Source of the DNA: Candidatus Tectomicrobia bacterium RIFCSPLOWO2_12_FULL_69_37
Lineage (GTDB): Bacteria; UBA8248
Direction of reading: 5' to 3'
Assembly (NCBI GenBank): GCA_001790955.1
Contig: MGDP01000039.1
Location: 193-64,192 of the forward strand
Length of the DNA stretch: 64,000 nt
The stretch's first letter is position 1, and each line of letters begins with the position of its first letter. Below are positions 1,759 to 41,613 of this stretch, piece after piece. The position numbers and the translations under genes are program-made. A model generated the notes under the pieces. It did no database searches, was not told the DNA's origin, and worked only from the letters and a program-made list of their open reading frames with translations.

Positions 1759-1853
1759 GGCTCAACCGGGGGGGGAGCAGTTTTACATCCTTGGATAAAA
1801 AGGACTAGAATTTCTGAAATTGGCCGTTGTTGGTCCCCTGTATAGGTCACCTT

Positions 1854-3266: not shown

Positions 3267-3311
3267 GGGCCGGCGTTCCGGCCCGCCCGGCCTCATAAGA
3301 GGAGGTGCGAG

Positions 3312-3776: not shown

Positions 3777-3788
3777 GGGGGATCGGCC

Positions 3789-5066: not shown

Positions 5067-5103
5067 GGCCCAGGCGCCCCTGGGCGAGCCAGGAGAGACC
5101 GGA

Positions 5104-15203: not shown

Positions 15204-16061
15204 TTACCGGACGCTCCTCTCCTTGGTACAACCAAAATTAAGGGATGAGGCGTCCGAGCATGCCCAGGCGGTTTTCCCTTCCCAGCACGAACCCGTGCCG
15301 GAGGCGAGACCCTCGGGGTGGGCGTAGACAGTAAATTGGTCATGTGTCACATAGCCGATGAGGGTGATCCCTAGGCGCTTCGCCAAGTCGATCGACAAGC
15401 TGGTCGGCGAGGTCCGGGAAATCACGAAGGGAACCTTCATCTGCGCCGCTTTCCGGAGCATTTCTGAAGAAATGCGCCCGCTGCTCGCCAGGATATGCTC
15501 GCGCGGATCAATTCCCCTCACGAGCACTTCCCCGCGGAGCTTGTCCAGGGTGTTGTGACGACCGATATCCTCTGCCACCGCGATCAGCCCTTCTCCGTCG
15601 AAGAGCGCCGCCGCGTGGATTCCGCGAGATTGGTGGTAGAGTTCGGCCGCTTCGATCAGCTGATGCATCAGCGACGGCACCGCATCCGGGTTTAGGACGC
15701 CTTCGGCGCGGATGGGAGCATAATCCCGAACATCCAGGTGGAACGTCACTCCGCCGGCGCAGCCCGAGGTCAAAATCCGCGGCCTCGATGACGGGAGAGG
15801 CCGATTCAGCTCGACATGGGCCTCGAATTCATTCTCGTCCACCTCAAGGCTCTTCACATCGCCAAGCGAATCAATGACCCGCTCGAAGGCAAGAAAGCCC
15901 AGAGCCAGCTCCCGGAGCTTCAGCGGGGTGCACATCAACGTCGCAAGCTCCTTGTTCTCCACCAAAATGCGGAAGGCGATTTCGCGCACCACGGGAATCT
16001 TGGCGGGTGAGAAAACTCCATTCGCATAGCGGTAGATAGTAAAGTCCATGTTGCCATCCAT
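15204..16061 (-). CDS. fdhD: formate dehydrogenase accessory sulfurtransferase FdhD
   Basis: Motifs 'SGCAGG', 'EDIGRHNTLDKLRG', 'ITLIGYV...FTVYAHPEGL' align with E. coli FdhD (EDVGRHVALDKL, LTLVGF, ATVYTHPQRL). Start chosen at MDGNMDF. Confidence 0.75.
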   Translation of the reverse strand: MDGNMDFTIYRYANGVFSPAKIPVVREIAFRILVENKELATLMCTPLKLRELALGFLAFERVIDSLGDVKSLEVDENEFEAHVELNRPLPSSRPRILTSGCAGGVTFHLDVRDYAPIRAEGVLNPDAVPSLMHQLIEAAELYHQSRGIHAAALFDGEGLIAVAEDIGRHNTLDKLRGEVLVRGIDPREHILASSGRISSEMLRKAAQMKVPFVISRTSPTSLSIDLAKRLGITLIGYVTHDQFTVYAHPEGLASGTGSCWEGKTAWACSDASSLNFGCTKERSVR

Positions 16062-16468
16062 CAATCGCTGCGGGCTTGCCAAGTCGTCCTTTCCGCAAGC
16101 CGCCAGAGAACTTCCCTCCACTCCATCACAGCCTTGTCATGCAAGTTTGCTGCCACGCGCTCCCCCATCGCTCATGAAGAACCAATCACCGAAACCCGGC
16201 TTTCCCCCGATCTCCTCTTTCCGGCCCAGCGATCGTGCAAACCACATCTTGAATCCTCCCTTGCGACAGCTCCCTTCCCGCCTCGCCAGGTCCACCTCCA
16301 GCTGCCGGGCCGCCTCTTTTCTGGGCGGGGCCCAGCTTCACCGGCACGTCTTGAGCAGTGCGCCGGGCGTCCGGGGCTTGTCCTCCAAAGCGTGTGTCCA
16401 AGGAGCTGGATTATTTTTGGAGCAGACGGGAAGCCCGAAGAGGGGAAGCCTCTAGAACCCCCCCCCGC

Positions 16469-16998: not shown

Positions 16999-17343
16999 CT
17001 ATTTCTTCGCGGGATGGCACTTCACGCATTCGGTGATTGGGAAGGCCTTCTGCCCGTTGTGACAGGCGCCGCAGTATTTCCCCGCGAGGAGGTCGGCGAC
17101 CATGATTGGCTTCCCCTCGGTGGTCGCGCCCTTCTTCATCTGGAAGATCTGGACATGACAGGCCGTGCACTCCGGGTTTTTCGCCTGGTGCGTCTTATGG
17201 CTGAAGGTGACGGGCGTCTGGTCCTTGGTCTGCGTGTACTTGATGTCCTCGGGAACCGGCATCTGCGAGTAGGCCCACACCGCGCTCAAGGTGACCGCCA
17301 GAACGGCCGCCGCCGCCAAACCCCATCGCGTCCATTTGCCCAT
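16999..17343 (-). CDS. triheme cytochrome c7 (PpcA-like)
   Basis: Signal peptide MGKWTRWGLAAAAVLAV. Three CxxCH motifs (CTACH, CGACH, CVKCH). 'VTFSHKTHQ' is a c7/c3 hallmark. About 114 aa. Confidence 0.7.
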   Translation of the reverse strand: MGKWTRWGLAAAAVLAVTLSAVWAYSQMPVPEDIKYTQTKDQTPVTFSHKTHQAKNPECTACHVQIFQMKKGATTEGKPIMVADLLAGKYCGACHNGQKAFPITECVKCHPAKK

Positions 17344-17486
17344 GTTCAAAGCTCCTTCTCCTTGTTCCCGAGAGACACAACCCCAGACCCTGCAGCCTCG
17401 GCTCTCCTGAGACGAGAGAACTTCGGCGCCATGATACTCAACCCAAGCCCGTCTGCAACCGGGAACGACCGCCAGCGCCAATCGTC

Positions 17487-19037
17487 CTATCGAACTTTCT
17501 TCGCCTCGATATCCGCCTTCGTGCCCAGCCCCAGCGTGTACTCGAAGGAGACGTGGTGGCGGCGGGTGGTTACGTGATCGTCGTGGATAGCGAAGGCGAT
17601 GGGATAGGTCTCCCCGTCCTTCAGGATCACGTCATCCTCGGGATGGCCCGTGTCGAGCTTGCGCTTGAGGATGAGGGTATATTTGCCCATCTTCTCGCCG
17701 GCCTTCCTCAAGAAGACCCCGTAGGCCTGGATGTCGCCCCGGCTCCCGTCCGGCGCCCGGAGGACGCGCTGGTAGAGGATGTCTCCCTCCTTGGGCTTGT
17801 AGACCTTGGGATCATAGGGAACCGCATTCTTGCCCAGGGTCGTGAGGAAGGCGATGGTCTCCTGGTCCTTGATCACCGGCAGGGGGTTCTTCCCGCCCTG
17901 GATGGCATACTCGCCCCCGCCCAGCCGGCCGGAGGGAACCGCCTGGGGATTGAACATGAAGCCCTTGGGGGGGGTCGCGTTCAGGTCCGCGGGCCGCTGC
18001 ATCTGCCAGAGGCCCTTCCCCCTGTCGCCGTTCCGGTAATCGAAGATCCACATGTCGTCGGCGTAGCCGATGTGGCCTGCGCGCGCGGCCCGCCACATCC
18101 ACATGTCGAGGAACTGGCCCTTCTTCCGCATCCCGGCCAGCTCTTCCTTGCCCTTGAGGAGCGACCAGCGCCCCTCGGCCTCGGTCGCGCCCTTCTTCTC
18201 CTTGGGGTCGCCCGCCTGGGCCGCGTTGCGGGTGGCGAGGAGGTACTTCCGGATGTCGCTCTGCTTCGGGAAGACCGATTTCACGCCCTTGTTGTTGAGC
18301 GCGTCGTAGGGCATGTCCCGCATGCTGTTGTGGCAGGTGATGAAGCAGCCGGCCGACTGGAAGCCGGCGGGGGTGCCCGCGTCCGCCGGGACGTGGCCGG
18401 GGGCGCCCTGCTTGTAGCCGAGGAGGAAGGTGAGCCGGTCCTCATAGAGCCCGGGGGACTTATCGGGCTTGAACCCGCCGTAGCCCACCCACTTCTTGCC
18501 GTCGAAGCGCATCGCGTTGTGGTAGGCGCCGGGCTCCTCGCTCTCCCACTGGAGCCAGAAGTACATGTTCTGGGCGTCGTAGGCGGCCTTGACGGCGAGG
18601 TCGACGGTGGGGCGCTTGCCGGGGATCGGCTTGTCCTCGGCGGGCCCCTTGGGGACGAGCTTCTTGCCGAGCGCCTCTTCGTCCGGCCCCGCTCCTCCCG
18701 TCACATGGCAGGTGCGGCAGGCGACGCCCGTCTTGACCACCGGCCCGCCCAGATGCGTAAAGTCCTTCTGGGGGTTCACCAGGCGATCCCAGGAGGCTTG
18801 GCCGGGGTAGAAGAGACGGATGCTCCTCGCCGGGATACCTTCCCATTTCACGGGGACATCCTTAGGCTGAAACGTCGGGATCTCCGGCTTGACCTCACTT
18901 CTCGCGGCCGCCCAGGATGGAGCCGCACCTAGCAGAAGGACCGCCGTACTCACGAGGGCAAGCACGAAAGAGGCCAGGCCCCGACCCAGGCGCTGTTCAG
19001 CAACAGGTCCAGCATCTCGATGAAAAAATGCCATCAT
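17487..19037 (-). CDS. diheme c-type cytochrome fused to an EB_dh/DOMON-like heme-binding domain
   Basis: Signal peptide. CRTCH and CFITCH motifs. C-terminal ~200 aa resemble the ethylbenzene-dehydrogenase gamma-subunit-like (EB_dh) fold. Confidence 0.55.
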   Translation of the reverse strand: MMAFFHRDAGPVAEQRLGRGLASFVLALVSTAVLLLGAAPSWAAARSEVKPEIPTFQPKDVPVKWEGIPARSIRLFYPGQASWDRLVNPQKDFTHLGGPVVKTGVACRTCHVTGGAGPDEEALGKKLVPKGPAEDKPIPGKRPTVDLAVKAAYDAQNMYFWLQWESEEPGAYHNAMRFDGKKWVGYGGFKPDKSPGLYEDRLTFLLGYKQGAPGHVPADAGTPAGFQSAGCFITCHNSMRDMPYDALNNKGVKSVFPKQSDIRKYLLATRNAAQAGDPKEKKGATEAEGRWSLLKGKEELAGMRKKGQFLDMWMWRAARAGHIGYADDMWIFDYRNGDRGKGLWQMQRPADLNATPPKGFMFNPQAVPSGRLGGGEYAIQGGKNPLPVIKDQETIAFLTTLGKNAVPYDPKVYKPKEGDILYQRVLRAPDGSRGDIQAYGVFLRKAGEKMGKYTLILKRKLDTGHPEDDVILKDGETYPIAFAIHDDHVTTRRHHVSFEYTLGLGTKADIEAKKVR

Positions 19038-19096
19038 GTGCTACCTCCTTTTTCTTGGGACGGCCCAAAACCGCCCCCGAGAACCCGGCGGATGCC

Positions 19097-20356
19097 CTAA
19101 ACCCCGCCCGGGGACTTCCTCTCCATCTCCCGGAGCTTCAGGAAAAGAAGCAACGCCAGAACAACGGTCAGCACAATCGGAAGAATGACCCACCTCCTGC
19201 GGGCCTCAAACTCCTTCAGGGCGCCAAGCGCCGTTTGCAGGGCTCCCTGGGCCACTTTATTGCCAATCTGAGCCTCTTTCTCAACCTCCTTCAGCGCGAA
19301 GGAATGGACCTGAGTGCGCACCTTGATGAGCATCGTGCGGGCCTCCTTCATGCTGAACTTGGCCTCCGAGACTTCCATGCCCAGCCGCTCGGCCTTCTCC
19401 AGCTCTTCCGTCGCGCGGTGGATCAGGCTCTTGAGATCCTCGATCTGCTTGCGCATCCCGGCGGCCACCCGCAACTGCGGCGACCCCGCGGCGTGGCAGC
19501 TGACACACACCGCCGGGGACTTGTCGCCGATCATGGCCTCGGATACGCGCACCACCTTGTGGTTCGAGTGGCAGACCACGCACTCGGGAAGCTTCATCCG
19601 CTCGAACGCCGGCTTATGCGGGCTCTTCACGAAGAGATCCCGGTTGTTCACGTGGCACTGCCCGCACATCCCGCTCACCGAACTCACGGCCGGGGGGAAA
19701 GCGCCGTGGTTGCCGTGGCAGTCGTTGCAGGTGGGGGCCGAGAGCTCCCGCTTCTTGATCAAGAGATCGGCATGGACGCTCTGGAGGTAGTTCTCGAGCT
19801 GATTGGTCGGGATCTTGTAATCCTTCATGTATGCCTTGTCCGCGTGGCACTTGGAGCAAGTGCCGGCCACCTTCGGCGCGTAGACGGTGGAATTGGCATG
19901 CGCGGCGGGGAGGATGCCGTGCGCGTTATGGCAGCTCGCGCAAGTCGCGACCTTCACGTCCCCTTTCGCAAGGCGCTGCCCGTGCACGCTCGTCTGGTAG
20001 GCCTTGTGCTGATCGACCGCGATGGACGGGCTGAACCGGCGCATGAAGGCGAGATCCCCGTGGCACTTGTCGCACAGGGCGGGGATCTCGGCCGGCTTGG
20101 GCACGCCGGTGTAGCCCTTCTCCTTGGACATAGAGACTTTGACGTCGAAGGAGGCGGGATCCCCGCCGTGGCAATTCACGCAGGAGAAGCCCTTCTGCGC
20201 ATGGATGTCGGCCTCCAGCATCTTCGCGGGGGCGCCCAGCTTCCCCGGCAGCGCGCGGTGGCACTGAACGCAGGAGTCGGGCTGGGGCGCCGCCGCCCGG
20301 CTCTCCGGAGCCGCGAGGAGAAACACGGCCGCCGCCCCCAGGGCCGAAAACACCAT
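19097..20356 (-). CDS. nonaheme c-type cytochrome with C-terminal membrane anchor
   Basis: Start MVFSALGAAAVFLLAAP (signal peptide). Nine CxxCH motifs (CVQCH, CVNCH, CDKCH, CASCH, CSKCH, CNDCH, CGQCH, CVVCH, CVSCH). C-terminal TM helix. The 901-aa track ORF merges this gene with the antisense of cytochrome b. Confidence 0.75.
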   Translation of the reverse strand: MVFSALGAAAVFLLAAPESRAAAPQPDSCVQCHRALPGKLGAPAKMLEADIHAQKGFSCVNCHGGDPASFDVKVSMSKEKGYTGVPKPAEIPALCDKCHGDLAFMRRFSPSIAVDQHKAYQTSVHGQRLAKGDVKVATCASCHNAHGILPAAHANSTVYAPKVAGTCSKCHADKAYMKDYKIPTNQLENYLQSVHADLLIKKRELSAPTCNDCHGNHGAFPPAVSSVSGMCGQCHVNNRDLFVKSPHKPAFERMKLPECVVCHSNHKVVRVSEAMIGDKSPAVCVSCHAAGSPQLRVAAGMRKQIEDLKSLIHRATEELEKAERLGMEVSEAKFSMKEARTMLIKVRTQVHSFALKEVEKEAQIGNKVAQGALQTALGALKEFEARRRWVILPIVLTVVLALLLFLKLREMERKSPGGV

Positions 20357-20388
20357 CCGCCGCCAAGAATTTCCGCGCACCGCAGACC

Positions 20389-21480
20389 TCAATAAGGTTT
20401 GAAGTAGGCCAGCGATGTCATGGTGGCCAAAAAGACGATCACCGCCACTCCATACGCCGTCACCAGCCAGTGCCGCCTCCCCTCCCTCGACCAGCGGTCC
20501 CAGAAGGGTACCAGGAAGAAGATCAGCCCGCCCGCCCCGATGGCGTACACCCCCAGGGCCTCCCCCTCCATCCCCATGACCTTGGCCGGGATGTACTTGA
20601 GCGACTGGGACATGAACGTGAAGAACCATTCGGGGCGGATCCCCGCCGGGGCGGAGGCGAGCGGATCGGCCTTCTCGCCCACCTCCCAGGGGAGGTACAC
20701 CGAGAGCACGGCGAGCAGGCCGAGGACGACCACCCACACGATGCCTTCCCGCAGGACGAAGTTCGGGATGAAGGGAATTCCCCTCGCTTTCTGCTGGCCG
20801 AGGGGCTGGCTCATCCCCAGGAGCTGAATCAGGAGCAGATGAAGCCCCAGGAAAATCGTGAAGATGGGGGGAAGGATCGCGACATGAAGCGCGAAGAACC
20901 GGGTGAGGGTGGGCCCGCTGATCTCGCTCGCGCCGAGGAGGAAGTTGCGCATCCCCTCGCCCACGACGGGGATGACCTTCGTGACGTCGGTCCCGATCTT
21001 GGTGGCGAAATAGGAAAGCTTCGTCCAGGGGAGGAGATAGCCGGAGAAGCCGAACGTCATGGACAGCACGAGGAGGACGAACCCCGTCACCCAGACCAGC
21101 TCGCGGGGGGGGCGGTAGGCGCGCATGAAGTAGACGCTGAACATGTGGATGAACAGCGCCAGGATCATCAGATTGGCCGACCAGCTGTGGATGGATCGGA
21201 TCAGCCAGCCGAAGGGAACCTTGGCCGAGATGAGGAGCACGCTCTCGTACGCCCCCTCCGGCGCGGGGACGTAGTAGAACATGAGCAGGATTCCCGTCAT
21301 CACCTGCACGCAAAACAGCAACAGGGCGACCCCGCCGAAAAGATAGAAGAAAGTGCCCTTGTGCCAGGGAACCTCTTTGTGGCGGAGGAACTCGACGACG
21401 CCGGAGAGAGGGGCTCGGCTCTCCAGCCAGGAAGCGAGCCGCTCGGACCTGTTCCCGGGGGATTGGGCCATTTGCGTCAA
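20389..21480 (-). CDS. cytochrome b (long bc-complex type, b6 plus subunit IV fused)
   Basis: 363 aa polytopic protein. Conserved cytochrome b signatures (SIHSWSANLMI, heme-ligand histidines, PEWFF). 4-nt overlap with the Rieske gene. Confidence 0.85.
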   Translation of the reverse strand: MTQMAQSPGNRSERLASWLESRAPLSGVVEFLRHKEVPWHKGTFFYLFGGVALLLFCVQVMTGILLMFYYVPAPEGAYESVLLISAKVPFGWLIRSIHSWSANLMILALFIHMFSVYFMRAYRPPRELVWVTGFVLLVLSMTFGFSGYLLPWTKLSYFATKIGTDVTKVIPVVGEGMRNFLLGASEISGPTLTRFFALHVAILPPIFTIFLGLHLLLIQLLGMSQPLGQQKARGIPFIPNFVLREGIVWVVVLGLLAVLSVYLPWEVGEKADPLASAPAGIRPEWFFTFMSQSLKYIPAKVMGMEGEALGVYAIGAGGLIFFLVPFWDRWSREGRRHWLVTAYGVAVIVFLATMTSLAYFKPY

Positions 21481-21929
21481 ACCTTCCGCGCGGAGACGAA
21501 GATTTCCTCGCCGCGGACCGCCACATCATAGGCCGCCAGCGGCGTGGGGGGAGGGCCCGCGATGTTGCGGCCGAACAGATCGAAGTGGCCGTTGTGGCAG
21601 GCGCACCAGATGTGCTCCAGGTCGGCCCGGTATTGGACGGTGCAGGACAGATGGGTGCACGTGGCGCTGAAGGCGCGGTACTCGCCCCCGGGCGTCCGGA
21701 CCAGGATGCCGATCGACCCGCCGAAGCGGAACAGCTTCGCGGTATTGGGCTTGATCTCGGATGTCGAGGCCACCCGGACGGTGTCCACATGCGCGACGGC
21801 AAAGCGCGAAGGGAGAAGAAAGCGGAAAACTGGGTACACCATGGTGCCCAGGAGGGCCAGGATGCCGCCCCCCAGGAAGTAATCCAGGACGCTCCTTCGG
21901 GTCAGCGAGAACCGGCTTTCCGATGCCAT
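21477..21929 (-). CDS. Rieske [2Fe-2S] iron-sulfur protein
   Basis: TAT-like N-terminus (SLTRRSVLD), TM anchor, Rieske boxes CTHLSC and CACHNGHF. Start set at the internal Met (MASESRF...). Confidence 0.8.
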   Translation of the reverse strand: MASESRFSLTRRSVLDYFLGGGILALLGTMVYPVFRFLLPSRFAVAHVDTVRVASTSEIKPNTAKLFRFGGSIGILVRTPGGEYRAFSATCTHLSCTVQYRADLEHIWCACHNGHFDLFGRNIAGPPPTPLAAYDVAVRGEEIFVSARKV

Positions 21930-22590
21930 TCGGAATACCCCCTCCTTCAAGTCTCTCCACGGCAACATTCTATTCTTGGCGCTGCACCACCCCAAGGGAA
22001 AGCGGCCATTCCCGACGCGAGACGGCCCCATCCGGGCGGACGGGACCCCACGAACCTCGCTTTTCCCTCTGCGGCTGCCAGCCAAGCCGGGGAACGGGGG
22101 TCCCCCGAAACGGCAATCACATCACGTGCCTTGCCGATAAAGGCAAGAAGCACACGTCTGAGTTGAGAATTTCAACGGAGGGCCAAGTCGTAATATGAAA
22201 CGGTTCCCAGCCCCTGTCAACGAGAAAACCCCCGCTTGAGGCCAAGATTGCATCCGAAGGAACCACCCAAAAGTTAAGTATTGCTTAACACTCTCAGGTT
22301 GGTGAGAACTTTGACAATTTGGCCACCTTGCGGGCGCAGGGACCGAGAGAATATCGGATGCCGGTCAAAAAACTGTTGCATTGGATATCATAATCCCCTA
22401 TCTTTTATGGCGTGGTGATTATCAACACTTGAAGATTCATCGGCCCTCCCTGAATTTCCGGCAGATCTCCGAAGCGTGTCTTTGAGGCCCCTTTCGTGGG
22501 TTGGGGCCAGAAGTTCTTCTGCGCTCGCGGTCAACGGGCGCGGGAGAATCTGATATCTCATTGCGAAACTCACATCTCTCGGAGAGCTTC

Positions 22591-23595
22591 ATGGGGGCGA
22601 CACAGAAGCACCAGCGAAAGGGAAAGCAGATGGTTTTCCTTGTACTTGCTTTCGTTGCCCTTCTGGCCGCGGGCGGCTGCTCCTCCGGTGACCGAGCCCC
22701 CGCCGCCAAAGCCCCGCCCGCCGCAGCCGCAGCCGCTTCCCGCACGACGGCAACCCAGGCCCGCGCGCAGGCCGCCTCCGCCCAGTATGTGGGTGACAGA
22801 GCCTGCATCGCCTGCCACAAGGACGCCGCCGAGAAATACGCCAAGACCCTCATGGGCAAGACCCTGAGCGGCCCGGCCCGGCCCGGCGTCCAGCGGGTGG
22901 ACTGCGAGTCCTGCCATGGGCCCGCCTCGGCCCACGTCGCCGCCGGCGGCGGGAAAGGGAAGGGGATCCTGGTCACCTTCCGCAGCGGCATCGAGCTGGC
23001 CGCGGTCCAGAACCAGCCGTGCCTCAAGTGCCACGAGAGCGACGAGCGGCGCTACTGGAAGTCGAGCGCCCACGACTCGCGCGACGTCTCCTGCGTCAGC
23101 TGCCACAAGCTGATGGAGAACGTCTCGGACCGCTTCGCCCTCGCCAAGCCCACCCAGAACGACACCTGCGCCCAGTGCCACCTCGTCCGGAAGGCCCAGA
23201 GCTTCCGCAACGCCCACATGGCCGCGCGGGAGGGGGCGACGCAGTGCTCCAACTGCCACGCCCCGCACGGCTCGCCCACCGAGAAGCTCCTGAAGGGCAA
23301 CTCCGTCAACGAGAACTGCTACAACTGCCATCCCGAGAAGCGGGGGCCCTTCATCTTCGAGCACGCCCCCGTGCGCGAGAGCTGCACCAACTGCCACGAG
23401 CCCCACGGCACCCTCAACGACAACCTCCTGAAGATGCGGCGGCCCCGGCTGTGCCAATCGTGCCACGTGGAGGGGCGCCATCCCTCCTCGGCGGGCCTGG
23501 CCAATACGGTCTACACGTTCGGGGCCTCCTGCCTGAACTGCCACAGCCGTGTCCACGGGTCGAATCATCCCTCGGGGAACTTCTTCCTGAGGTAA
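22591..23595 (+). CDS. periplasmic decaheme c-type cytochrome, MtrA/DmsE/PioA family
   Basis: Signal peptide with a possible lipobox (LLAAGGC). Ten CxxCH motifs in about 330 aa. Followed 47 nt downstream by a large beta-barrel gene. Confidence 0.75.
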   Translation: MGATQKHQRKGKQMVFLVLAFVALLAAGGCSSGDRAPAAKAPPAAAAAASRTTATQARAQAASAQYVGDRACIACHKDAAEKYAKTLMGKTLSGPARPGVQRVDCESCHGPASAHVAAGGGKGKGILVTFRSGIELAAVQNQPCLKCHESDERRYWKSSAHDSRDVSCVSCHKLMENVSDRFALAKPTQNDTCAQCHLVRKAQSFRNAHMAAREGATQCSNCHAPHGSPTEKLLKGNSVNENCYNCHPEKRGPFIFEHAPVRESCTNCHEPHGTLNDNLLKMRRPRLCQSCHVEGRHPSSAGLANTVYTFGASCLNCHSRVHGSNHPSGNFFLR

Positions 23596-23642
23596 GGGAC
23601 TTCAGCCGGATTCATTTGGGGACGCCCCAGCCGTAAGGAGAC

Positions 23643-25835
23643 ATGAAGATGATGCCGAGGGCGGCGAGGACACCATTCATGCTTGGGCTGCTCGTGGCGG
23701 CGATTGCCCTGCTCGCCGCACCGGCCGACGCGCAAGAGCTCAAGCTCGGCGACTACACGATCTCGGGTGACTTGGAAGGCGGCGTCCGCCAGCTCTACGG
23801 CGAGCGCCGGGACAGCCGGTTCAACGAGTTCCGGGAAATCCCCCAGGGGCTGTTCTTCCCCGGCCTCCGGCTGGACGTCGGCAAGCCCGGCTACTATTAC
23901 GAGCTCCGGGCCGAGGACCTGCTGGAGAACGATCAGTCCCTCCGCTTCTCGCTGGGGTCGCCGGGCCTCTACCGCCTGGACGTGGAGTGGAACGAGCTCC
24001 AGCACATGTTCAAGAACCAGGCCATCACCCCCTACTCCGGCGTGGGGGGGAGCGACCTCACGATCGACTCCGCCGTCCGGACGGTGATTCAGGGCCAAAG
24101 CAGCTCCGCGCAGATCACCAGCGTGGACAGCCTCTTCCGAAGCGGGCACAGGGAGGTCATCGGTTTCGACCGCGACCGGGCCGAGGTGAAGTTCAGGACC
24201 ATGCTGGCGCCGGACTTCACCGTCAAGACGTATTACAAGAACGAGCGCTGGGACGGCACCCGGCCCATCAATATGCTGTTCGGCAGCAGCCCCGGCGGCC
24301 GCCCGTTCATCGAGCTCCCGATGCCCGTGGACTACCGCCACGACGTGGTCCGTCTCGCTCTCGAGTGGGCCCGGAACGGCAACTCCCTCGAGGTGGGCTA
24401 CGAGGGCTCCTTCTTCGAAAACCGCTACGGCAGCGTGACCTTCAGCAACCCCTTCCGGGGGACGGATGCCTCCAGCACCCCCGCCCGGGGCCGCTTCGCC
24501 CTGGACCCGGACAACCAGGCCCACTACCTCAACGTCCACGGCGCCTTCAACCTGCCGGCCGAGACCCGCCTGATGGGCACCTTCTCCTACGGCTGGCTGA
24601 CCCAGGACGAGACCTTCGTCCCCCACACCATCAACACCGCCCTCACCAGCTCGACCCTCACCCTCCCCCGGAACAGCCTGGACGGGGAGCTCAACCCGAC
24701 CCTCGTCAACCTCGTCCTGACCAACCGGGCGATCCACAACCTCACCATCACGGGCCGCTACCGCTACTACGACCTGGAGAACAACACCAAGCACATCGAG
24801 TTCCCGGGCCACACCGTGGGCGACGTGAGCCAGGTGACCACCTCGACCCTGGAGAACTCCCGCATCGAGTACACCCGCCAGAACGCGGGCGTGGACCTGA
24901 GCTACCGCCTCAGCAACAACCTCAAGCTGAGCGGCGGCTACGAGTGGAGGAAAGCGGACTACCACGAGCTCCACGCCAAGGAGAACCAAGAGGACCGGGC
25001 CAAGGTCAGCCTGGATATCAAGGCCAACAACTGGCTCATGATCCGGCCCGCCTACATCTACTCCGACCGGAGCGTCTCGGGCTACGTGGCCCAGAGCCTC
25101 CCCACGCAGGCGGAGCGGCGGGAGTTCAACCTGGCCGAGCGCGAGCGGCACGAGGGCAAGCTGATGGCCCGGATCATGCCCTCCGACAGGTTCTCCATCA
25201 CCTTCGAGGGCGGCCTCGGGACCGAGGACTACAACGCCAAGTACGGCCTGGACGAGGGCTACGTGTGGAACGCCTCCGTCGAGGTGGCGGTGACCCCCGT
25301 CGACTGGCTCAACATGTTCGCGAGCTACACCCACGAGAGGGTTTTCGGCAAGATCCACTCGGTCCAGAACAGCCGCGTCGGCGGCGTGGATACCTTCTTC
25401 GACGTGGACGCCTGGACGATGAAGTTCACGGACGACTACGACGTCATCCGCGCGGGCTTCGACCTCCTCCTCTACGAGAACAAGGAGAAGGGCCGGAAGG
25501 TCACCGCCCGGGCCGAGATGTCCTACGCCTACAGCAGCGGGGAGACGAGGAACTCCAAGGACGACCCCGCTTCTACCGTTGTTGCCACCGAGAACTGGCC
25601 CGACATCAAGGCCAAGCTGTGGGGGGTGTTCACCCGGGTGGACTACCACCTGAGCAAGCACTTCTCCATCGGCGCGGGCTACAACTACGAGCGCTACACC
25701 CTCGACGACTTCACGCAGCGGTGGGTGGACGTAGTCGTGCCCTCGCAGATCAGCACGCGGGTGTACTCCCTCGGCGACCGGCTGGACAACTACGAGGCCC
25801 ACACCGTGGCCATGTTCGCCCGCTGGCGCTTCTGA
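23643..25835 (+). CDS. MtrB/PioB-family outer-membrane beta-barrel (porin-cytochrome conduit)
   Basis: Signal peptide, 730 aa, alternating amphipathic composition rich in Y/G/N/D, C-terminal aromatic beta-signal '...ARWRF'. Sits immediately after the decaheme cytochrome. Confidence 0.65.
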   Translation: MKMMPRAARTPFMLGLLVAAIALLAAPADAQELKLGDYTISGDLEGGVRQLYGERRDSRFNEFREIPQGLFFPGLRLDVGKPGYYYELRAEDLLENDQSLRFSLGSPGLYRLDVEWNELQHMFKNQAITPYSGVGGSDLTIDSAVRTVIQGQSSSAQITSVDSLFRSGHREVIGFDRDRAEVKFRTMLAPDFTVKTYYKNERWDGTRPINMLFGSSPGGRPFIELPMPVDYRHDVVRLALEWARNGNSLEVGYEGSFFENRYGSVTFSNPFRGTDASSTPARGRFALDPDNQAHYLNVHGAFNLPAETRLMGTFSYGWLTQDETFVPHTINTALTSSTLTLPRNSLDGELNPTLVNLVLTNRAIHNLTITGRYRYYDLENNTKHIEFPGHTVGDVSQVTTSTLENSRIEYTRQNAGVDLSYRLSNNLKLSGGYEWRKADYHELHAKENQEDRAKVSLDIKANNWLMIRPAYIYSDRSVSGYVAQSLPTQAERREFNLAERERHEGKLMARIMPSDRFSITFEGGLGTEDYNAKYGLDEGYVWNASVEVAVTPVDWLNMFASYTHERVFGKIHSVQNSRVGGVDTFFDVDAWTMKFTDDYDVIRAGFDLLLYENKEKGRKVTARAEMSYAYSSGETRNSKDDPASTVVATENWPDIKAKLWGVFTRVDYHLSKHFSIGAGYNYERYTLDDFTQRWVDVVVPSQISTRVYSLGDRLDNYEAHTVAMFARWRF

Positions 25836-28507: not shown

Positions 28508-29165
28508 CTATTCCGCCGGCCCGGGGAACGTCCGGGGCCAGCTCTCCACGAGGCCGGAGAGATAGCGCACCAGGTCCCCCGCGTCCTGCCGTCGGCTGTC
28601 CTTGGCGCGGTCGATGCTCTCCTGCGCCTCGAGCGGTATCCGGAGGGAGTCCTGAAACCGGTTCCGCATGTTGAAGTAGGTGATCACCATGGTCAGCTCG
28701 ACGAGTTCGGGCCGCGAGAAACGCCGGCTCACCTCCGCGAACACGTCATCCCGCGACTTGGCCGTGTTCCGGGTGACGTGCCCGGCCCAGAGGACTGCGG
28801 CCTTCTCCCGGGGAGAGAGGAGCGGCGAATCCATGTAGCGGTCCGTGCCGATGACCTGGATCTGCTCGTCCGTGATCCCGGCCGCCCGGCCGAGCGCCGT
28901 GTTGTGGGCGAGTCAGTAGTTGCACCCGTTCACCTGGCTCGTCTTGATGACGGCCATCTCCTTGAGCTTCGTCTTCAGGACAGACCCGAGCCCTTCCCGC
29001 ATCAGGGTCACCGTGAAGGGAAGCAGCACCCGCGCGGCGTAGGGCGCGTGGGCCATCACCCGCCAGGAGTTGGGGACCCGCCCCGAGCATCTTCTCGGCG
29101 CTCGCGTAAAAGCGCTTCATACCGCCCCCGGCTTCCTCCTCCGGGACTCCTGGGATTCGGGACAT
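28508..29165 (-). CDS. AhpD/carboxymuconolactone-decarboxylase-family selenoprotein (CxxU motif; Sec TGA at 28913..28915), with an apparent frameshift near the 5' end
   Basis: The minus-strand frame continuous with ORF 28508..28834 reads '...KEMAVIKTSQVNGCNY-U-LAHNTALGRAAGITDEQIQVIGTDRYMDSPLLSPREKAAVLW...'. The TGA sits where AhpD/CMD proteins have the second Cys of CxxC(xxH). The N-terminal 'MSRIPGVPEEEAGGGMKRFYASAEKMLG' lies in a different frame (track ORF 28746..29165), implying a 1-nt indel around 29070..29085. Confidence 0.55.
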
Positions 29166-29207
29166 CTCGCGCCCGCCGGCTCACAAGTCGTCATGCGGCG
29201 CGCAACC

Positions 29208-29609
29208 TCACGCCTTGCCCTTCCCTTGCGCCTGCTCGTCCGCGATCCGTTTCAGTGCGTAGAGGCCCTCCATGAGCACGGGGGCGCCCCCGCCGATGCT
29301 CGCCACCTCGAACGCCTCCAGGACTTCCTCCATGGTGGCCCCCAAGCGCAGGGCCTTCTTCGCGTGAGTATAGACCTCGTGCTTCATCCCCTTGAACGCC
29401 AGGATCCCCAGCTCGATCAATTCCCGGGTCTTGGGATCCAGGTGGCGCGGCTCCTCCTTGAAGAAACCCCAATGCATCTGGGCGTACACCTCGAAGTAGT
29501 CGGGGTCCAACTGCGCGCCAAAACCCAGCACGTCATAGACGAAGCCCCGGTCTCGGTGAATCCTCTCGGTGATCCGGCGGACCCGCTCCTCGCGCGTTTC
29601 AGGCGCCAT
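29208..29609 (-). CDS. carboxymuconolactone decarboxylase (CMD) family protein
   Basis: 133-aa C-terminal portion of the track ORF beginning at MAPETREERV. CMD-like helix pattern. Confidence 0.6.
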   Translation of the reverse strand: MAPETREERVRRITERIHRDRGFVYDVLGFGAQLDPDYFEVYAQMHWGFFKEEPRHLDPKTRELIELGILAFKGMKHEVYTHAKKALRLGATMEEVLEAFEVASIGGGAPVLMEGLYALKRIADEQAQGKGKA

Positions 29610-29942
29610 GGCCGTGTTCCTCCCATCTCGAAATGGAAAGCCCCACACACCCGGAAAGCGGATCATTACGCGGTTTGTGACAACCGTATGTTCGGCCCCG
29701 CGGCGGCCAATGTCAACGCTGCCCGTCCTCCGCGCGCGCTTCTCCGCCCCGGATCCGCCCCCTGGAAGGAGGGAGGGGACATCCCGACAAAAATCGGGCC
29801 GCCCATTCCCGGGGGGACGCGGCGCAGAAAGAGGAGCCGGGGAAGCCCGCGGACCTCCCTCCGCGCGCGTCCAGATTGACGGTCCGGGTGAACCCGGGCA
29901 TCCTGAAATCCCCAACACGTCAGCCAGCGTGCGAGGTGGGTC

Positions 29943-30875
29943 GTGGCCATCTATGTCCTCAAACGGCTGCTTTGGCTCGCGCCCGTCCTCTTCGGCGTTT
30001 CGCTCGTCATCTTCCTCTCCATCCGCCTGATCCCGGGAGACCCCGCCGAGGCCCTGGCCGGGGAGTACGCCACCCCGGAGTACGTCGAGGAAATCCGCCG
30101 CGAGTACGGCCTGGACAAGCCCATCCATGTCCAATACCTCGTTTTCCTCCGCCGCCTGGCGCGGGGGGACTTGGGCCGCTCCATCCGATCCGACCGGCCG
30201 GTGCTGGACGAAGTGCTCGCGCGCTTCATCAACACCCTCCACCTCGCGCTATGGTCCATGCTCCTCGCCACCTTGCTGGGCCTCATCGCCGGGGTGATCT
30301 CAGCCACGCGTCCCTACTCCAAGTTCGACTACGGCAGCATGACGGGGGCGCTCCTCGGAATCTCCATGCCCTCCTTCTGGCTCGGCCTCATCCTCATCTG
30401 GTTTTTTTCGGTTCAGCTCGGCTGGCTTCCCGCGGGAGGCAAGGGCACGGTGGCTCATCTGGTCATGCCCGTCTTCACCCTCGGGGCGACGGCGGCCGGC
30501 CTCGTGGCACGCATGACGCGCAATTCGATGCTGGAGATCATCCACAGCGAGTACATCATCACCGCCCGGGCAAAGGGCCTGGCGGATCCGGCGGTCCACT
30601 ACGTCCACGCCTTGAGAAACGCCCTCCTGCCCGTGGTGACCGTCATCGGCCTCCAGTCCGGCTACCTGCTCGGCGGATCGGTCATCACCGAGTCCGTCTT
30701 CGCCTGGCCGGGCCTCGGACGGCTCATCGTGGACGCCATCAAGCTGCGAGACTACCCGGTGGTCCAAGGCTCGCTCCTCGTCTTCGCGCTGAGCTTCGCC
30801 CTCGTGAACCTGGCCGTGGACCTCCTGTACGCCGTGATCAACCCGCGGATCCGCGTCGGGAGGGGAGGCCGGTGA
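29943..30875 (+). CDS. ABC transporter permease, DppB/OppB family
   Basis: GTG start with RBS gaggtggg. Typical N-terminus 'YVLKRLLWLAPVLFGVSLVIFL..IPGDP'. EAA-loop region present. Confidence 0.85.
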   Translation: MAIYVLKRLLWLAPVLFGVSLVIFLSIRLIPGDPAEALAGEYATPEYVEEIRREYGLDKPIHVQYLVFLRRLARGDLGRSIRSDRPVLDEVLARFINTLHLALWSMLLATLLGLIAGVISATRPYSKFDYGSMTGALLGISMPSFWLGLILIWFFSVQLGWLPAGGKGTVAHLVMPVFTLGATAAGLVARMTRNSMLEIIHSEYIITARAKGLADPAVHYVHALRNALLPVVTVIGLQSGYLLGGSVITESVFAWPGLGRLIVDAIKLRDYPVVQGSLLVFALSFALVNLAVDLLYAVINPRIRVGRGGR

Positions 30876-31771
30876 GCCGGGCGCTTGAGGCGGCCGCTGC
30901 CCCCCCGCAGGAAGAAGCGGAGCCCTCGCTTGGCTTGTGGGCCGTCGGCTGGAACCGCCTTTGCCGCCACCGGGTGGCTCTCGCCGGGGGCGTGTGCATC
31001 TTGATCTTCATCCTCGCCGCCCTCCTGGCACCCTTGCTCTCGCCCTACGATCCCCTCGAAACCAATCTGCACGCCACCCTGAAAAAGCCGTCGCTCGCCC
31101 ATTGGCTCGGGACGGACCACTTCGGGCGGGATGTCCTGAGCCGGATCATCTTCGGAGCCCGCACTTCGCTGGTCATCGGGGTCGTGGCGGTGCTGATCGG
31201 GGCCGTGGGGGGGATCCTGCTGGGGCTCGTCGGAGGCTATTTCGGAGGCACGCTCGACAATGCCATCATGCGGGTGGTGGACGTGGCGCTCACCTTCCCC
31301 CGAATCTTGCTGGCCATCCTCCTCATCGCCATCGTCGGCAGCGGAACGCAGAACATCATGCTGGCGGTGGGCCTCTTCTCCGTCCCCACCTTCGCCCGGC
31401 TCGTGCGCAGCTCCGTGCTCGCCCTGAAGGAGACCGAGTTCGTGGAAGCAGCGCGGGCCATCGGCAACGGCCACCGGCGCATCTTGCTCCACCACATCTT
31501 CCCCGGGACGCTGGGGCCCATCGTGGTGCAATCCACCTTCCTGATGGCCACTTCCATCCGCGTGGCGTCCGGCTTGAGCTTCCTCGGCATCGGGGTGACG
31601 CCGCCCACCCCGGAATGGGGAGCCATGCTGGCCGACGCGCGGAGCTACATGGCGCTCGCGCCCCATCTGCTCACCATTCCGGGCTCGGCCCTGATGATGG
31701 TGGTTCTCTCGTTCAACCTGCTGGGGGACGGGCTCCGGGACGCCCTAGACCCGCGCCTGAAGCGGATCTAG
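30872..31771 (+). CDS. ABC transporter permease, DppC/OppC family
   Basis: GTG start overlapping the dppB-like stop (GTGA). Conserved 'HWLGTDHFGRDVLSRIIFGAR'. Confidence 0.85.
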   Translation: MSRALEAAAAPPQEEAEPSLGLWAVGWNRLCRHRVALAGGVCILIFILAALLAPLLSPYDPLETNLHATLKKPSLAHWLGTDHFGRDVLSRIIFGARTSLVIGVVAVLIGAVGGILLGLVGGYFGGTLDNAIMRVVDVALTFPRILLAILLIAIVGSGTQNIMLAVGLFSVPTFARLVRSSVLALKETEFVEAARAIGNGHRRILLHHIFPGTLGPIVVQSTFLMATSIRVASGLSFLGIGVTPPTPEWGAMLADARSYMALAPHLLTIPGSALMMVVLSFNLLGDGLRDALDPRLKRI

Positions 31772-31796
31772 GGCGCCCCTCGCCGCAGAGGATTGA

Positions 31797-33335
31797 TCAG
31801 TCGTCCAGGCGCGCCTTGTGGAAATAAACGCGCTCGGACGGATGCAAGATCACGCCGTGCAGCTTCTTCGACTTCCCGACCAGCATCACCTCCTGCTTCA
31901 GGAAGACCCAGGGCGCGTCCTGGATGACGACCTTGACCGCTTCCTTGTAGAGCGCCTTGCGCTTCCCGGCGTCGACCGTCGAGCGGGCCTGCTCGAGCAG
32001 CTTGTCAACCACAGGGTTCTTGTAGCGGTCGTAGTTGCCCTGGGCGCCCCACATGGAAGAGTGGAACTTGAAGTACATGGCCATGTCGGCGTCGCCCGAC
32101 ATCACGCCCCAGCCGTAGAAGTAGACCGGCGCCTTGCCGTTGCGGATGGTCGGGGCGACCAAGCCCCAGTCTCCCGTCCGGAGCTTCGCCTTGACGCCCA
32201 CCTTCGCCAGCTGGGCCTGGATGGCCTCGGCGGCGATCTTGTCGGCGGTGTACTTCCCCGTGGGATGCCAGAGATCGGTCTCGAAGCCGCTGGGGAAGCC
32301 TGCCTCCTTGAGAAGCCTCTTGGCTTTCTCAGGGTCGTAGCTGTAGCCCATCTTTTCGAATTCGGGGTCGTACCCCCAGGTGGCTGGCCCGAAGGGCCCC
32401 CGGAGATGCTTGCCCGTCTTCATCATCAGCTTGTCCACGATGACCTGGGTGTCGATGGCGTAGTTCATGGCCCGGCGGACGAGCGGATTGTCGAAGGGCT
32501 TGATCAGGTTGTTCATCCCGATATACACGACCCGGAACAAAGGCGCGCTCACCAGGTCCAGCTTTGGATCCTTCTCCACCTCCTGCATCTGCGCGGGAGG
32601 CAGGTACATCGCCAAATGGGACTGGCCGGCCCGGAGCTGGAGCACCCGCGTGGTGTCCTCGGGGATCACGCGGAACTCCAGTTGATCGATGGCGGGTCTG
32701 CCGCCCCAATAGTTGGGATTGGCCTCGAACTGCATGTACTCGCCCGGCTCCCATTTCTTGAAGATGAAGGGCCCCGTCCCCACGGGACGGCGGCGGAAGT
32801 CCTTGCCGTGCTTCTTGACGGCCGCCGGGCTGGCCATCGCCGCCACCGGGATGGCCAGGTTCGCCAGGATGGGGCCGTAGGGGTTCTTGAGCTTGATCTC
32901 AACCGTCTGGTCGTCGAGCACCTTGACGGATTTGATCATCCGGATGTAGCCGGCCCAGCGGGCGGCCTTGTTGTTGATGACGCGCTCGAAGTTGAACTTC
33001 ACGTCCTCCGCCTTGAAGGGCGTCCCGTCATGGTACCGGACGCCCTTGCGGAGGGTGAACACCAGGGTGGTGTCGTCCTTGAATTTCCAGGAGGTGGCGA
33101 GATTCGGCTCGATCTTCCCATCCGGCGTCTGGAACACCAGGGTGTCGTAAAGGTCCACGTGGACCAAGGCGTCATACGTCCCGGTGGGGTGAAGGGACGG
33201 GTCGAGGCTCTGGGCGTCGGCACCCGCAGTGAAAATCACCTTCTTCTGTGCCGAGGCGGCGGGGGAAGCACCCAGGCTCAGGGCCAAGGAGAATGCCGCA
33301 CAGGCGAGCAAGGCGGTTCGGGCTGGGGACCTCAT
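31797..33335 (-). CDS. ABC transporter substrate-binding protein, family 5 (DppA/OppA-like)
   Basis: Signal peptide MRSPARTALLACAAFSLALSLGASPAASA. Family-5 solute-binding protein composition. Convergent with the permease genes. Confidence 0.8.
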   Translation of the reverse strand: MRSPARTALLACAAFSLALSLGASPAASAQKKVIFTAGADAQSLDPSLHPTGTYDALVHVDLYDTLVFQTPDGKIEPNLATSWKFKDDTTLVFTLRKGVRYHDGTPFKAEDVKFNFERVINNKAARWAGYIRMIKSVKVLDDQTVEIKLKNPYGPILANLAIPVAAMASPAAVKKHGKDFRRRPVGTGPFIFKKWEPGEYMQFEANPNYWGGRPAIDQLEFRVIPEDTTRVLQLRAGQSHLAMYLPPAQMQEVEKDPKLDLVSAPLFRVVYIGMNNLIKPFDNPLVRRAMNYAIDTQVIVDKLMMKTGKHLRGPFGPATWGYDPEFEKMGYSYDPEKAKRLLKEAGFPSGFETDLWHPTGKYTADKIAAEAIQAQLAKVGVKAKLRTGDWGLVAPTIRNGKAPVYFYGWGVMSGDADMAMYFKFHSSMWGAQGNYDRYKNPVVDKLLEQARSTVDAGKRKALYKEAVKVVIQDAPWVFLKQEVMLVGKSKKLHGVILHPSERVYFHKARLDD

Positions 33336-33630
33336 TTCGCCTCCCTCCAGATGATCGTTCGTGGTGGACGCCACTGGGGATTCACCCCTCCCGGGAGAAA
33401 CGGTGCGGGAGGATCACCCAGCCAAAAAAAGCCGCAGGAGTTATAATATATTCTTACGCCGCCGCGGCGGGAGCGTCAATATCGGCGGCCCAGAGAGGGC
33501 CGCTGGCCGGCACGTCCCATCCGGAGCGAGCGCCGCACGGGAGACTGGAATCATTCCAGGATCGTCCGGGCAATCATCATTCGATCCGAGCGGATTTTCG
33601 ATCCCGCTCACACCGTTGGGGTGAACTGAG

Positions 33631-34989
33631 ATGAACGCGACCGAGCGGATGGCGGAGTTCATAGTGACGACCCGTCTGGAGCGCATTCCGGACGCGGTGA
33701 TCGCCTCGGCGAAGCGGGCGATCCTGGACACCTTGGGCGTCACCGTGGCGGGCGCCTCGGAGCCGGTGGGGCGGACGATCGTCGAGTATGTCCGCGGCAT
33801 GGGAGCCGCCGGCGATGCGACCATCCTGGCGGCCGGGCTCAAGACCTCCCCGCCCTTGGCCGCCCTGGCCAACGGCGCCCAGGGGCACGCCCTCGACTTC
33901 GACGACTCGAACTGGTCGCTCAACGGCCACGCCAGCGTGGGCGTCCTACCCGCGGTCCTGGCCCAGGCCGAGGCCCAGGGAGCATCCGGCGGAGAGGCGC
34001 TCGAAGCCTACGTCATCGGCTTCGAAGTCTCTTCGAAGCTCGGGGCCGGGATGAACATGGGCTTGTACTACAACGGCTGGCACCCCACCGCGGCGCTGGG
34101 CGCCATGGGGGCCACGGCCGCCGCCGCCCGCCTCCGTGGGCTCGACGTCGAGCGGACGCGCGTTGCCCTGGGCTGCGCCGCCTCGCACGCCTCGGGGATC
34201 CGGGCCAACTTCGGAACGATGATGAAGCCCATGCACGCCGGCCTCGCCGCCGAGTCCGGCGTCCGCTCGGCCGCCCTGGCCGCGGCCGGAATATCGGCCA
34301 ACCGCCAAGTGCTGGAGGCTCCCAGCGGCTTCGGCGACACCTTCAGCGGGGCCGGGAAGCACCGCATCGGAGAGGCCGTGGAGGGGTTGGGGCGGCCCTT
34401 CGTTCTGGAGTCCCCGGGAAACAACATCAAGCCCTATCCCTGCTGCATGTCGGCCCATGCCGCGGTCGATACCCTGCGGGACCTGATGGCAGGTTCCGGC
34501 TTCGCCGCCGAGGATGTCGAGCGCATCGACGTGGAGCTTCCCGAGCCGAACGTCCTCAACTTGAGCTACCACCAGCCCAAGACGGGGCTCGAGGGGAAGT
34601 TCTCGGGCGAATACATCCTCTCCCGCCTGATGGTGGATGGAGAGCTGCGCTTGAGCACCTTCACCGACGCCGCCGTGAGCGACTCCCATATCCAGGGCCT
34701 GATGAAAAGGATTCACGTCCGCGTCGCCGAAAACCTCGAATGGGCCCAGGGCACCGGCCGGCCGGCCCTCGTCACCGTCCGCACGAGGGACGGCCGCACC
34801 CTCCAGAAGCGCAGGCAAGGCTCGCGCGGAAACGCCGCCTGGCCGCTGACGGACGAGGAGCTGCGCGCCAAATTCCGCGACTGCGCCGGCGCCCGCCTCG
34901 GCCCCGTGAAGACGGAGGCGGTCATCGAGCAGCTGGCCGGCCTGGAGAAGCTCGCGGATATCCGGACCCTGATATCCCTCCTGGCCTGA
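33631..34989 (+). CDS. MmgE/PrpD-family protein (2-methylcitrate dehydratase-like)
   Basis: 452 aa. N-terminal 'RLERIPDAVIASAKRAILDTLGVTVAGA', 'HALDFDD' and 'NGWHPTAALGAMGA' are characteristic. Confidence 0.85.
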   Translation: MNATERMAEFIVTTRLERIPDAVIASAKRAILDTLGVTVAGASEPVGRTIVEYVRGMGAAGDATILAAGLKTSPPLAALANGAQGHALDFDDSNWSLNGHASVGVLPAVLAQAEAQGASGGEALEAYVIGFEVSSKLGAGMNMGLYYNGWHPTAALGAMGATAAAARLRGLDVERTRVALGCAASHASGIRANFGTMMKPMHAGLAAESGVRSAALAAAGISANRQVLEAPSGFGDTFSGAGKHRIGEAVEGLGRPFVLESPGNNIKPYPCCMSAHAAVDTLRDLMAGSGFAAEDVERIDVELPEPNVLNLSYHQPKTGLEGKFSGEYILSRLMVDGELRLSTFTDAAVSDSHIQGLMKRIHVRVAENLEWAQGTGRPALVTVRTRDGRTLQKRRQGSRGNAAWPLTDEELRAKFRDCAGARLGPVKTEAVIEQLAGLEKLADIRTLISLLA

Positions 34990-35291
34990 GAGCGGCCGGC
35001 TCGACCCCGCTCCCGTCCAAGAGGAGACCAGCCCGAACCCCTGCCGCCCCGGAGAGGTCCCCGGCTCCTTCTACGAATCCATGAAGCTGGACGGGTATCC
35101 CCCGAACATCCGGTTTCATTGCTGGCGGAGCGAAAAAAGCGGCCACAAGCCGCCGGAGGCCGTCGTCCTCGCGAGAAGCCCGGAGGAAAGTATCATACGA
35201 GACGAAGGAGAGAGCTGCCTGCCGGGAAAGTGACGCCCGGCGGCCCCGTGGCAGCGGACTTCAATGCCTCGCGAATGGGAGGATCTGTGCG

Positions 35292-41377: not shown

Positions 41378-41613
41378 ACTGCGGCGCGCTTCGGAAAGGA
41401 GTCAACCATCCTATCACGGGCTCGTGGAACCAAGGGAGCCGTGCGGCCTCCTTTCCCCGCGCGTCCCAGGCTCCAGGCGAAGACACTCCGCAGGGCGGGA
41501 CGGCCGAATCCCATTGCCGGATCCGCCGGAAGGCCATACCATCGAGGCGGCCCCCAATTGCGGCTGACGCCAGGTGCCTTGTGCCGCCCGGGCAGCCATC
41601 AGGAGATCCCACG

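Follow-up and report, generated by a model that had tools for sequence, protein, structure and literature searches.

The window considered here is a stretch of 64,000 nucleotides on contig MGDP01000039.1 (assembly GCA_001790955.1) from a Candidatus Tectomicrobia metagenome-assembled genome (MAG) recovered from groundwater of the Rifle aquifer. On its minus strand, at 28508..29165, lies an AhpD-like gene that carries a TGA codon at the second position of its CxxC-type redox motif and is broken near its 5' end. This locus is very probably a pseudogene of recent origin within the known AhpD-like family of CxxU selenoproteins, where U stands for selenocysteine (Sec). The family assignment rests on sequence comparison, and it is the one-base insertion at 29085, which splits the frame, that makes the locus a pseudogene of the family and not a functional member. 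GenBank annotates at this place only a C-terminal fragment of 108 aa, named 'hypothetical protein' (OGL60433.1 / OGL67459.1).

The disrupted gene measures 658 nt, which without the extra base become 657 nt, that is, 218 codons plus a stop. All its parts lie on the minus strand. The N-terminal coding piece (MSRIPGVPEEEAGGGMKRFYASAEKML, 29086..29165) starts at the ATG at 29163..29165, and the upstream frame opens MSRIPGVPEEEAGGGMKRFYASAEKMLG and then continues for 111 codons without any match to the family. The rest of the gene (28508..29084, G28 RVPNSW ... PAE, about positions 28-218 of the family profile, 320 bits) is read one base on, in the frame RVPNSWRVMAHAP...KEMAVIKTSQVNGCNY-TGA-LAHNTALG...WPRTFPGPAE-TAG, with the TAG stop at 28508..28510. 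Removal of a single base from CTCGGGGCGGG (29078..29087) yields one unbroken frame of 218 codons. The CxxU motif occupies 28913..28924 within VNGCNY-TGA and comprises Cys81 (TGC, 28922..28924), Asn, Tyr and Sec84 (TGA, 28913..28915), followed by L-A-H87. The downstream frame also contains an internal GTG and ATG at 29054..29059 (GTG 29057..29059, ATG 29054..29056), which is the sole route to an N-terminally truncated product. An earlier reading made from the letters of the window (the sequence-only reading) had described the TGA, the N-terminus in a different frame and the internal ATG, and all of them are present as described.

In profile searches, for which U was written as C, the repaired protein scored above the cut-offs of Pfam CMD (PF02627; 41.1 bits, cut-off 23) and of the AhpD core domain model TIGR00778 (40.5 bits, cut-off 27.8). 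The best-scoring curated models, TIGR01926 'peroxidase-related enzyme' (64.2 bits against a cut-off of 81.8; profile positions 2-174 of 178) and NF053654 'YciW-related (seleno)protein' (73.8 bits against 310; positions 1-173 of 179), are matched over nearly their full length with scores under their cut-offs, so that the window protein belongs to a related subfamily and is not a member of either. This subfamily of about 220 aa, with a C-terminal WPxxFPxP tail, falls below every NCBIfam equivalog cut-off. Residues C81, Y83, position 84 (U written as C), H87 and N88 are 100% conserved among 106 homologs. The same degree of conservation is found for a Glu located 12 residues before the first Cys, E69 in the window, which we take to be equivalent to E118 of the Mycobacterium tuberculosis enzyme.

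In full-length Cys homologs (VNGCxYCYAHNT) and in the solved structure 2ijc (NGCAYC), the residue that aligns with the TGA is the second Cys of the CxxC motif. Among 107 distinct sequences from genome and metagenome scans, U is found in at least 104 and C in three. Nearly all of the genome loci have TGA with the N-terminus in the same frame (58 detected by a first regular expression, plus sampled loci initially scored as 'no motif'), and TGC occurs in two only; that first motif search was too narrow, and about 20 of the 'no motif' loci proved on inspection to be CxxU as well. The presence of TGA in at least 104 of the 107 homologs, together with the covarying hairpin described below, identifies the known AhpD-like CxxU selenoprotein family. 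The proposal of an AhpD/CMD protein with a CxxU motif thus holds, including the coincidence of the TGA with the second Cys.

Recognition of the AhpD-like CxxU proteins as a selenoprotein family dates from 2005 (PMC1088965, PMC2398784), and the Global Ocean Sampling (GOS) study assigned 299 sequences to 'AhpD-like 1' (COG2128, CxxU) (PMC2398784). The family is mostly marine and mostly of the Sec type. The AhpD-like selenoproteins of the Sargasso Sea and GOS metagenomes (PMC1088965, PMC2398784) share with the window gene the AhpD/CMD fold, Sec at the second CxxC position and a bacterial hairpin for Sec insertion just downstream of the UGA. Compared with their published descriptions, the window copy differs in being frameshifted, probably dead and located in a groundwater Tectomicrobia MAG. 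Cys-type AhpD and peroxidase-related proteins of solved structure (PA0269 2ijc/2o4d/7xw1; 2oyo, 2pfx, 2prr and 3c1l; AhpD 6k40) share the domain with E values from 5e-14 to 3e-6 and have in common with the window the NGCxYC..H active-site block and the conserved W-x-E helix. They carry Cys instead of Sec and are at most distant sequence relatives, and the window has Gly in place of the Glu of that helix.

The selenocysteine insertion sequence (SECIS) that the sequence-only reading proposed to look for downstream of 28913 on the minus strand was found through ortholog comparison. In 60 orthologs a common hairpin occurs at +18..+35 after the UGA, with the apical loop GGUC in 54, GGAC in four and GGCC in two. 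Its pair 24-29 is U-A in 27 sequences, C-G in 13 and unpaired in none, a compensatory pattern that couples the third position of a synonymous Leu codon to the second position of a Gln/Arg codon. When the window sequence was folded by itself, the 71 nt downstream of the TGA gave no significant structure (z = -1.2), so the SECIS is seen only through the orthologs; a crude scan of the window for TGA codons followed by hairpins returned mostly off-frame noise in this DNA of 67% GC. In the window the hairpin lies at 28880..28898 (+18..+36 from the U of the UGA), with the apical loop at 28888..28891. This loop reads GGCC, compared with GGUC in the intact sister allele introduced below, and when 42 nt are folded together, 88% of the predicted ensemble is taken by a competing hairpin displaced by 4 nt. 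SECIS function in the window allele is uncertain on the basis of this modelling. The apical loop of the Escherichia coli fdhF SECIS reads GGUC. The family hairpin has this tetraloop, at a fixed distance from the UGA, and differs from the fdhF element in its stem sequence and in having no clear bulged U. U17, G23 and U24 are invariant in the fdhF SECIS (PMC8659212), and in the window GGCC loop the equivalent of U24 is C.

The piece encoded in the upstream frame is part of the same gene. With a family hidden Markov model (HMM) built without the window sequence, the downstream frame alone scored 322.4 bits and the joined protein 346.6 bits, the N-terminal piece adding about 24 bits, while shuffled N-termini joined to the same downstream frame gave 324.8 +/- 1.4 bits. 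None of 300 shuffles reached the real value, which shows that the upstream piece is truly the N-terminus of the gene. Since it is homologous to the N-termini of the family, it keeps its relevance despite the internal ATG; the contrary outcome had been named by the sequence-only reading as one that would refute it.

With the repaired 83-aa N-terminal fragment as the query, an intact relative was retrieved, P0143, of 83 aa and 86% identity over its full length. It is encoded on two contigs (L185 and L186) from two samples, one of which, ERZ4903185, also holds a contig of the window type. This type 2 allele is an intact gene with 89% nucleotide identity to the window, and it keeps the TGA, the CUU-GGUC-AG top of the hairpin, E128 (GAG in L185) and I187. 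At the junction the window reads CT[C]GGGGCGGG, the extra base being bracketed, and the intact allele CTGGGGCGGG; in codons, ATG CT[C] GGG GCG GGT CCC CAA corresponds to ATG CTG GGG CGG GTG CCG AAC. The inserted C is best placed at 29085 (minus strand) and is formally ambiguous within 29081..29085. As both alleles have GGGG, the lesion is an insertion of C and not a miscounted homopolymer. The claim of a 1-nt frameshift near the 5' end is borne out by the frames, the HMM shuffles and the comparison with the intact allele, and is refined to this inserted base.

All 17 contigs that cover the junction are identical there and read ATGCTCGGGGCGGG. Six of them are long contigs from different assemblies, with at most one single-nucleotide polymorphism (SNP) in 751 nt relative to the window, both SNPs being synonymous, and eleven further contigs complete the total. 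They were drawn from ENA, Logan, NCBI and the original Rifle assemblies, and represent many samples and several SNP haplotypes. More than one assembler is inferred from the contig names, which include MEGAHIT-style k141 names, scaffolds of the original study and Logan contigs. With the lesion identical in 17 contigs, across many samples and at least two assemblers, an assembly error is very unlikely. An intact 83-aa N-terminal open reading frame (ORF) with the window's own sequence was absent from about 15 billion proteins; an earlier protein search had omitted the window's own ORF fragments, so absence from its list is uninformative. No other frameshifts were found among the approximately 47 other window ORFs picked as likely genes, most of which were checked against Pfam. 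A metagenome scan returned no relative above 68% identity and no copies of the window type, and was of no help on the question of the allele. Contig L173 begins inside the G run, and its junction allele is not readable.

Comparison with the type 2 allele also dates the lesion. The Nei-Gojobori ratio of nonsynonymous to synonymous substitution rates (dN/dS) between the two alleles is 0.28 (dS 0.27), close to the 0.24 of the adjacent permease gene. Constraint thus held for the greater part of the interval after the strains diverged, and the inactivation is recent. The 27 amino-acid differences were polarised with the family profile: the commoner residue is that of type 2 at 18 of them and that of the window at seven (p = 0.043), and in every well-conserved column that differs the rarer residue is the window's. 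Of the 66 columns with a conservation of 90% or more, the window protein departs from the family at two, with a family median of one and a maximum of seven. These derived changes are E128G (codon GGG, 28781..28783), which lies in the otherwise invariant LWAEHVT block and replaces a Glu present in 96% of the family, and I187A (codon GCC, 28604..28606), which replaces an Ile present in 97% and kept in L173 and L185. This pattern points to relaxed constraint in the window lineage.

A third lineage has lost half of the gene. In contigs L088-L092, from other samples (SRR22388208, SRR22388342, GCA_016184445.1), the region corresponding to 28800..35164 of the window is missing. This deletion of about 6.4 kb removes the 5' 365 nt of the AhpD-like gene together with five genes (a PrpD-like gene, a SBP_bac_5 gene, two ABC permease genes and a CMD paralog), and about 366 nt of unrelated sequence stand in its place in L088, L091 and L092. 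The remnant of the gene is 76-79% identical, with indels and a flat distribution of differences over codon positions (25/13/27). For the flanking GFO gene the identity is 89-90% with a pattern of 15/15/88, and at the protein level at least 90%. Each of three related lineages thus shows the gene in a different state: intact, frameshifted or half-deleted. Lineage-specific loss of a single selenoprotein gene that relatives keep is described in 'Dynamic evolution of selenocysteine utilization in bacteria' (PMC1794560); in the window clade the loss is seen at three stages among close relatives, with other Sec genes apparently kept.

These observations are accounted for by a simple sequence of events. 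The working form of the gene would encode an AhpD-fold thiol/selenol oxidoreductase of about 218 residues, a role suggested by family membership, in which the UGA at codon 84 would be read as selenocysteine under the direction of the SECIS hairpin at a distance of 18-36 nt. The one-base insertion, a C placed after codon 26/27, shifts the frame inside the conserved LGRVPNS motif, so that ribosomes starting at the ATG at 29165 would run into 111 nonsense codons and the full CxxU domain would not be made. The event is real and recent, with the remainder of the gene near the consensus and the first signs of decay, and the state of the gene in the related lineages shows that it is dispensable in this clade.

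Several observations weigh against the loss of function. The gene is otherwise remarkably intact: the catalytic-block residues K68, E69, K74, T75, N79, C81, Y83, U84, H87 and N88 are all kept, as is the hairpin stem GGCGCUC / GGGCG(G)CC with its C-G closing pair. The GGCC loop cannot be called defective, since the loop of the organism's own, apparently intact grdB hairpin, (C)GGC(G), also lacks the U; the interpretation of the loop as a dead SECIS was downgraded for this reason. The pairwise dN/dS is not raised over that of the neighbouring permease, and the only two clean SNPs among haplotypes of the window type are synonymous. At the junction itself, in CUC-GGG-G, the Gly-tRNA could re-pair perfectly in the +1 frame and restore the consensus MLG-RVPN, so that some residual full-length product may be made.

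Three other explanations have been weighed. That the true genome is intact and the extra base technical, as the sequence-only reading had allowed in the form of an indel in a homopolymer, might be suspected from the G/C-rich stretch beside a run of four G, and is barely credible. The extra base recurs on every junction-covering contig, across samples, runs, assemblers and SNP haplotypes; assembly ERZ4903185 resolves the inserted and un-inserted alleles on separate contigs; the length of the G run does not differ between alleles; and the other window ORFs checked are free of frameshifts. Between the artefact and the recently inactivated selenoprotein gene offered by that reading, the latter is favoured by the 17 contigs, by the intact allele of a relative without the C and by the half-deleted third lineage. 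Another possibility is a working product without its N-terminus, initiated at the GTG at 29059 or the ATG at 29056, with the UGA read as Sec, that would comprise about 184 residues and miss the first 34. Gene callers do place a 47-aa ORF at ATG 29056 on 13-17 contigs, the downstream catalytic block and SECIS stem are intact, dN/dS is low, and for the shortest solved relatives (PA0269-type, 145 aa) the alignment begins only at about query residue 50. Such a protein would, however, omit G28, R29 and S33 (93-97% conserved) as well as L27 and V30 (85-88%), in a family whose other 106 members all have the N-terminus in frame. For solved relatives of comparable length (2oyo, 6k40, 3c1l, 2pfx) the alignment begins at query residues 7-17, which indicates that the N-terminal segment belongs to the fold. 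Inspection by eye shows no good Shine-Dalgarno sequence with suitable spacing, as GGCGGGTG abuts the ATG, and the derived E128G and I187A and the deletion in the sister lineage point to lost constraint. A functional truncated protein is accordingly considered unlikely.

The re-pairing mentioned above leads to a further explanation, in which +1 frameshifting or quadruplet decoding at CUC GGG G would restore MLG-RVPN and UGA-84 would then be decoded as Sec. The P-site re-pairing, from GGG to an overlapping GGG, is perfect as far as the letters tell, the resulting product is the family consensus, the lesion is fixed in every contig of the window type, and the remaining gene is well preserved. If this were true, the insertion would be a translational attenuator of a selenoprotein and not a null mutation. 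Such dual recoding is nevertheless judged very improbable. The shift is found in none of more than 100 orthologs and the closest relative is plainly in frame, the window lineage shows an excess of derived substitutions, and two other lineages lose or keep the gene in an ordinary way. GCG, the 0-frame A-site codon, should be common in a genome of 67% GC and is neither a stop nor a hungry codon. In the prfB/RF2 frameshift a Shine-Dalgarno-like stimulator lies about 3 nt upstream; the window, with GAGAAGAUGCUC upstream, has no such element 3 nt before the site. It shares with prfB/RF2-type +1 frameshifting the slippery P-site codon, without the slow A-site codon, the stimulator or conservation in orthologs. 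Phase variation by slipped-strand mispairing was rejected, as the G run is only 4 nt and of equal length in both alleles. A young pseudogene is the explanation retained here.

Some contigs of the locus, and of other family members, show mixed or irregular structures. L174 (ERZ27254858 k141_723260) matches the window exactly across the paralog and the junction and carries the type 2 allele from 29012 onward. It was not used as a sign of selection after the frameshift, because it may be a chimeric contig from a mixture of strains. In L173 the differences cluster at 28592..28637 and inside the GFO gene. The mosaics L174, L173, L182 and L184 could reflect recombination between co-occurring strains or chimeric assembly. 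L001 (Ga0589679_0488698) has two N-terminal stops and a C-terminal frameshift, and its TGA was translated as W by JGI. The protein P0019 starts exactly at MLG, and its start was considered as a conserved break at the junction; this was dropped because its contig, L001, is multiply disrupted and is either a poor contig or a separate pseudogene. In L072 (CBDCMA010000002.1) the frame is lost around the CxxU region and regained later; the disruptions of L072 and L001 may be long-read homopolymer errors or further pseudogenes. Multiple family copies also occur: a Rhodospirillaceae contig (L047, JAYNQW010000001.1) has two CxxU copies about 2 kb apart (VNGCAY-U and VNGCNY-U), and in several Nitrospinota MAGs two or three Sec-type paralogs lie on separate contigs.

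Next to the disrupted gene, 42 nt upstream on the same strand, lies a Cys-free CMD/PcaC-like paralog (29208..29609), correctly recognised in the sequence-only reading and matching Pfam CMD with an E value of 4.3e-15. Only the window-type strain has it; in the type 2 strain (L185) just 119 nt (L185:1013-1131) separate the permease gene from the AhpD-like gene, and there is no such paralog. Also beside the locus, a cluster of the extracellular-electron-transfer type extends over 16999..25835 (also L002:12642-20988). It contains a MtrB/PioB porin (23643..25835), several multihaem cytochromes, a Rieske protein, a cytochrome b and a protein with an EB_dh domain, which suggests a redox metabolism of iron or other metals in this Tectomicrobia.

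Four further Sec genes in the window appear, from their ORF and Pfam patterns, to have been split or cut at the TGA by gene callers. Two belong to a glycine/sarcosine/betaine reductase cluster on the plus strand (1827..6430), composed of a GrdC/D-like gene (1827..3266), grdA, a grdE-like gene (3789..5066) and grdB. In grdA the TGA at 3435..3437 reads CFV-U-TSAGAMD, and the called ORF (3453..3776) matches Pfam GRDA only from position 47. In grdB (from 5104) the TGA at 6163..6165 reads PAT-U-GTGTRSGAT, with the frame open for 88 more codons. Classical GrdB proteins have Cys residues after the Sec (UxxCxxC), and the window GrdB, with U-GTGTRSGAT, may be a variant. The third gene, fdnG-like and with a Tat signal, lies on the minus strand in a formate-dehydrogenase-N-like operon (8870..13994 and 15204..16121, with an FdhD gene nearby) that also encodes a 4Fe-4S subunit (10141..10950) and a NrfD-type membrane subunit (8870..10144). 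Its molybdopterin subunit is split by the TGA at 13428..13430 (EHQARI-U-HSSTVASL), and its SECIS-like hairpin is CGUCGCC/GGCGGCG with the loop AGUUU. The fourth is an OsmC-like gene on the plus strand (41581..42171), in which the TGA at 41866..41868 gives MGIGF-U-LLTQ; Pfam OsmC spans this TGA (1.1e-12), and the hairpin is GGCGC/GCGUC with the loop GGUAC. The UxxT motif found here has been reported for OsmC-like selenoproteins. None of selA, selB, the selC tRNA-Sec or selD was found within the 64-kb window, where ARAGORN detected no tRNA and Rfam gave no match.

The sequence contexts of these genes suggest that the organism still uses selenocysteine. As four other genes with an in-frame TGA have canonical contexts, the loss of the AhpD-like gene would be specific to this gene and not a loss of the Sec trait, and the presence of five Sec-type genes in 64 kb suggests a selenoprotein-rich Tectomicrobia. 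As a young pseudogene the locus is ordinary and its family is known; it opens no new mechanism and settles no open question. Its main value lies in annotation, as the 'hypothetical protein' of GenBank is really a frameshifted AhpD-like selenoprotein gene, and in a tidy snapshot of selenoprotein loss. For the evolution of these proteins it offers a small and clean example from nature of how selenoproteins are lost gene by gene, here in an organism apparently rich in them otherwise.

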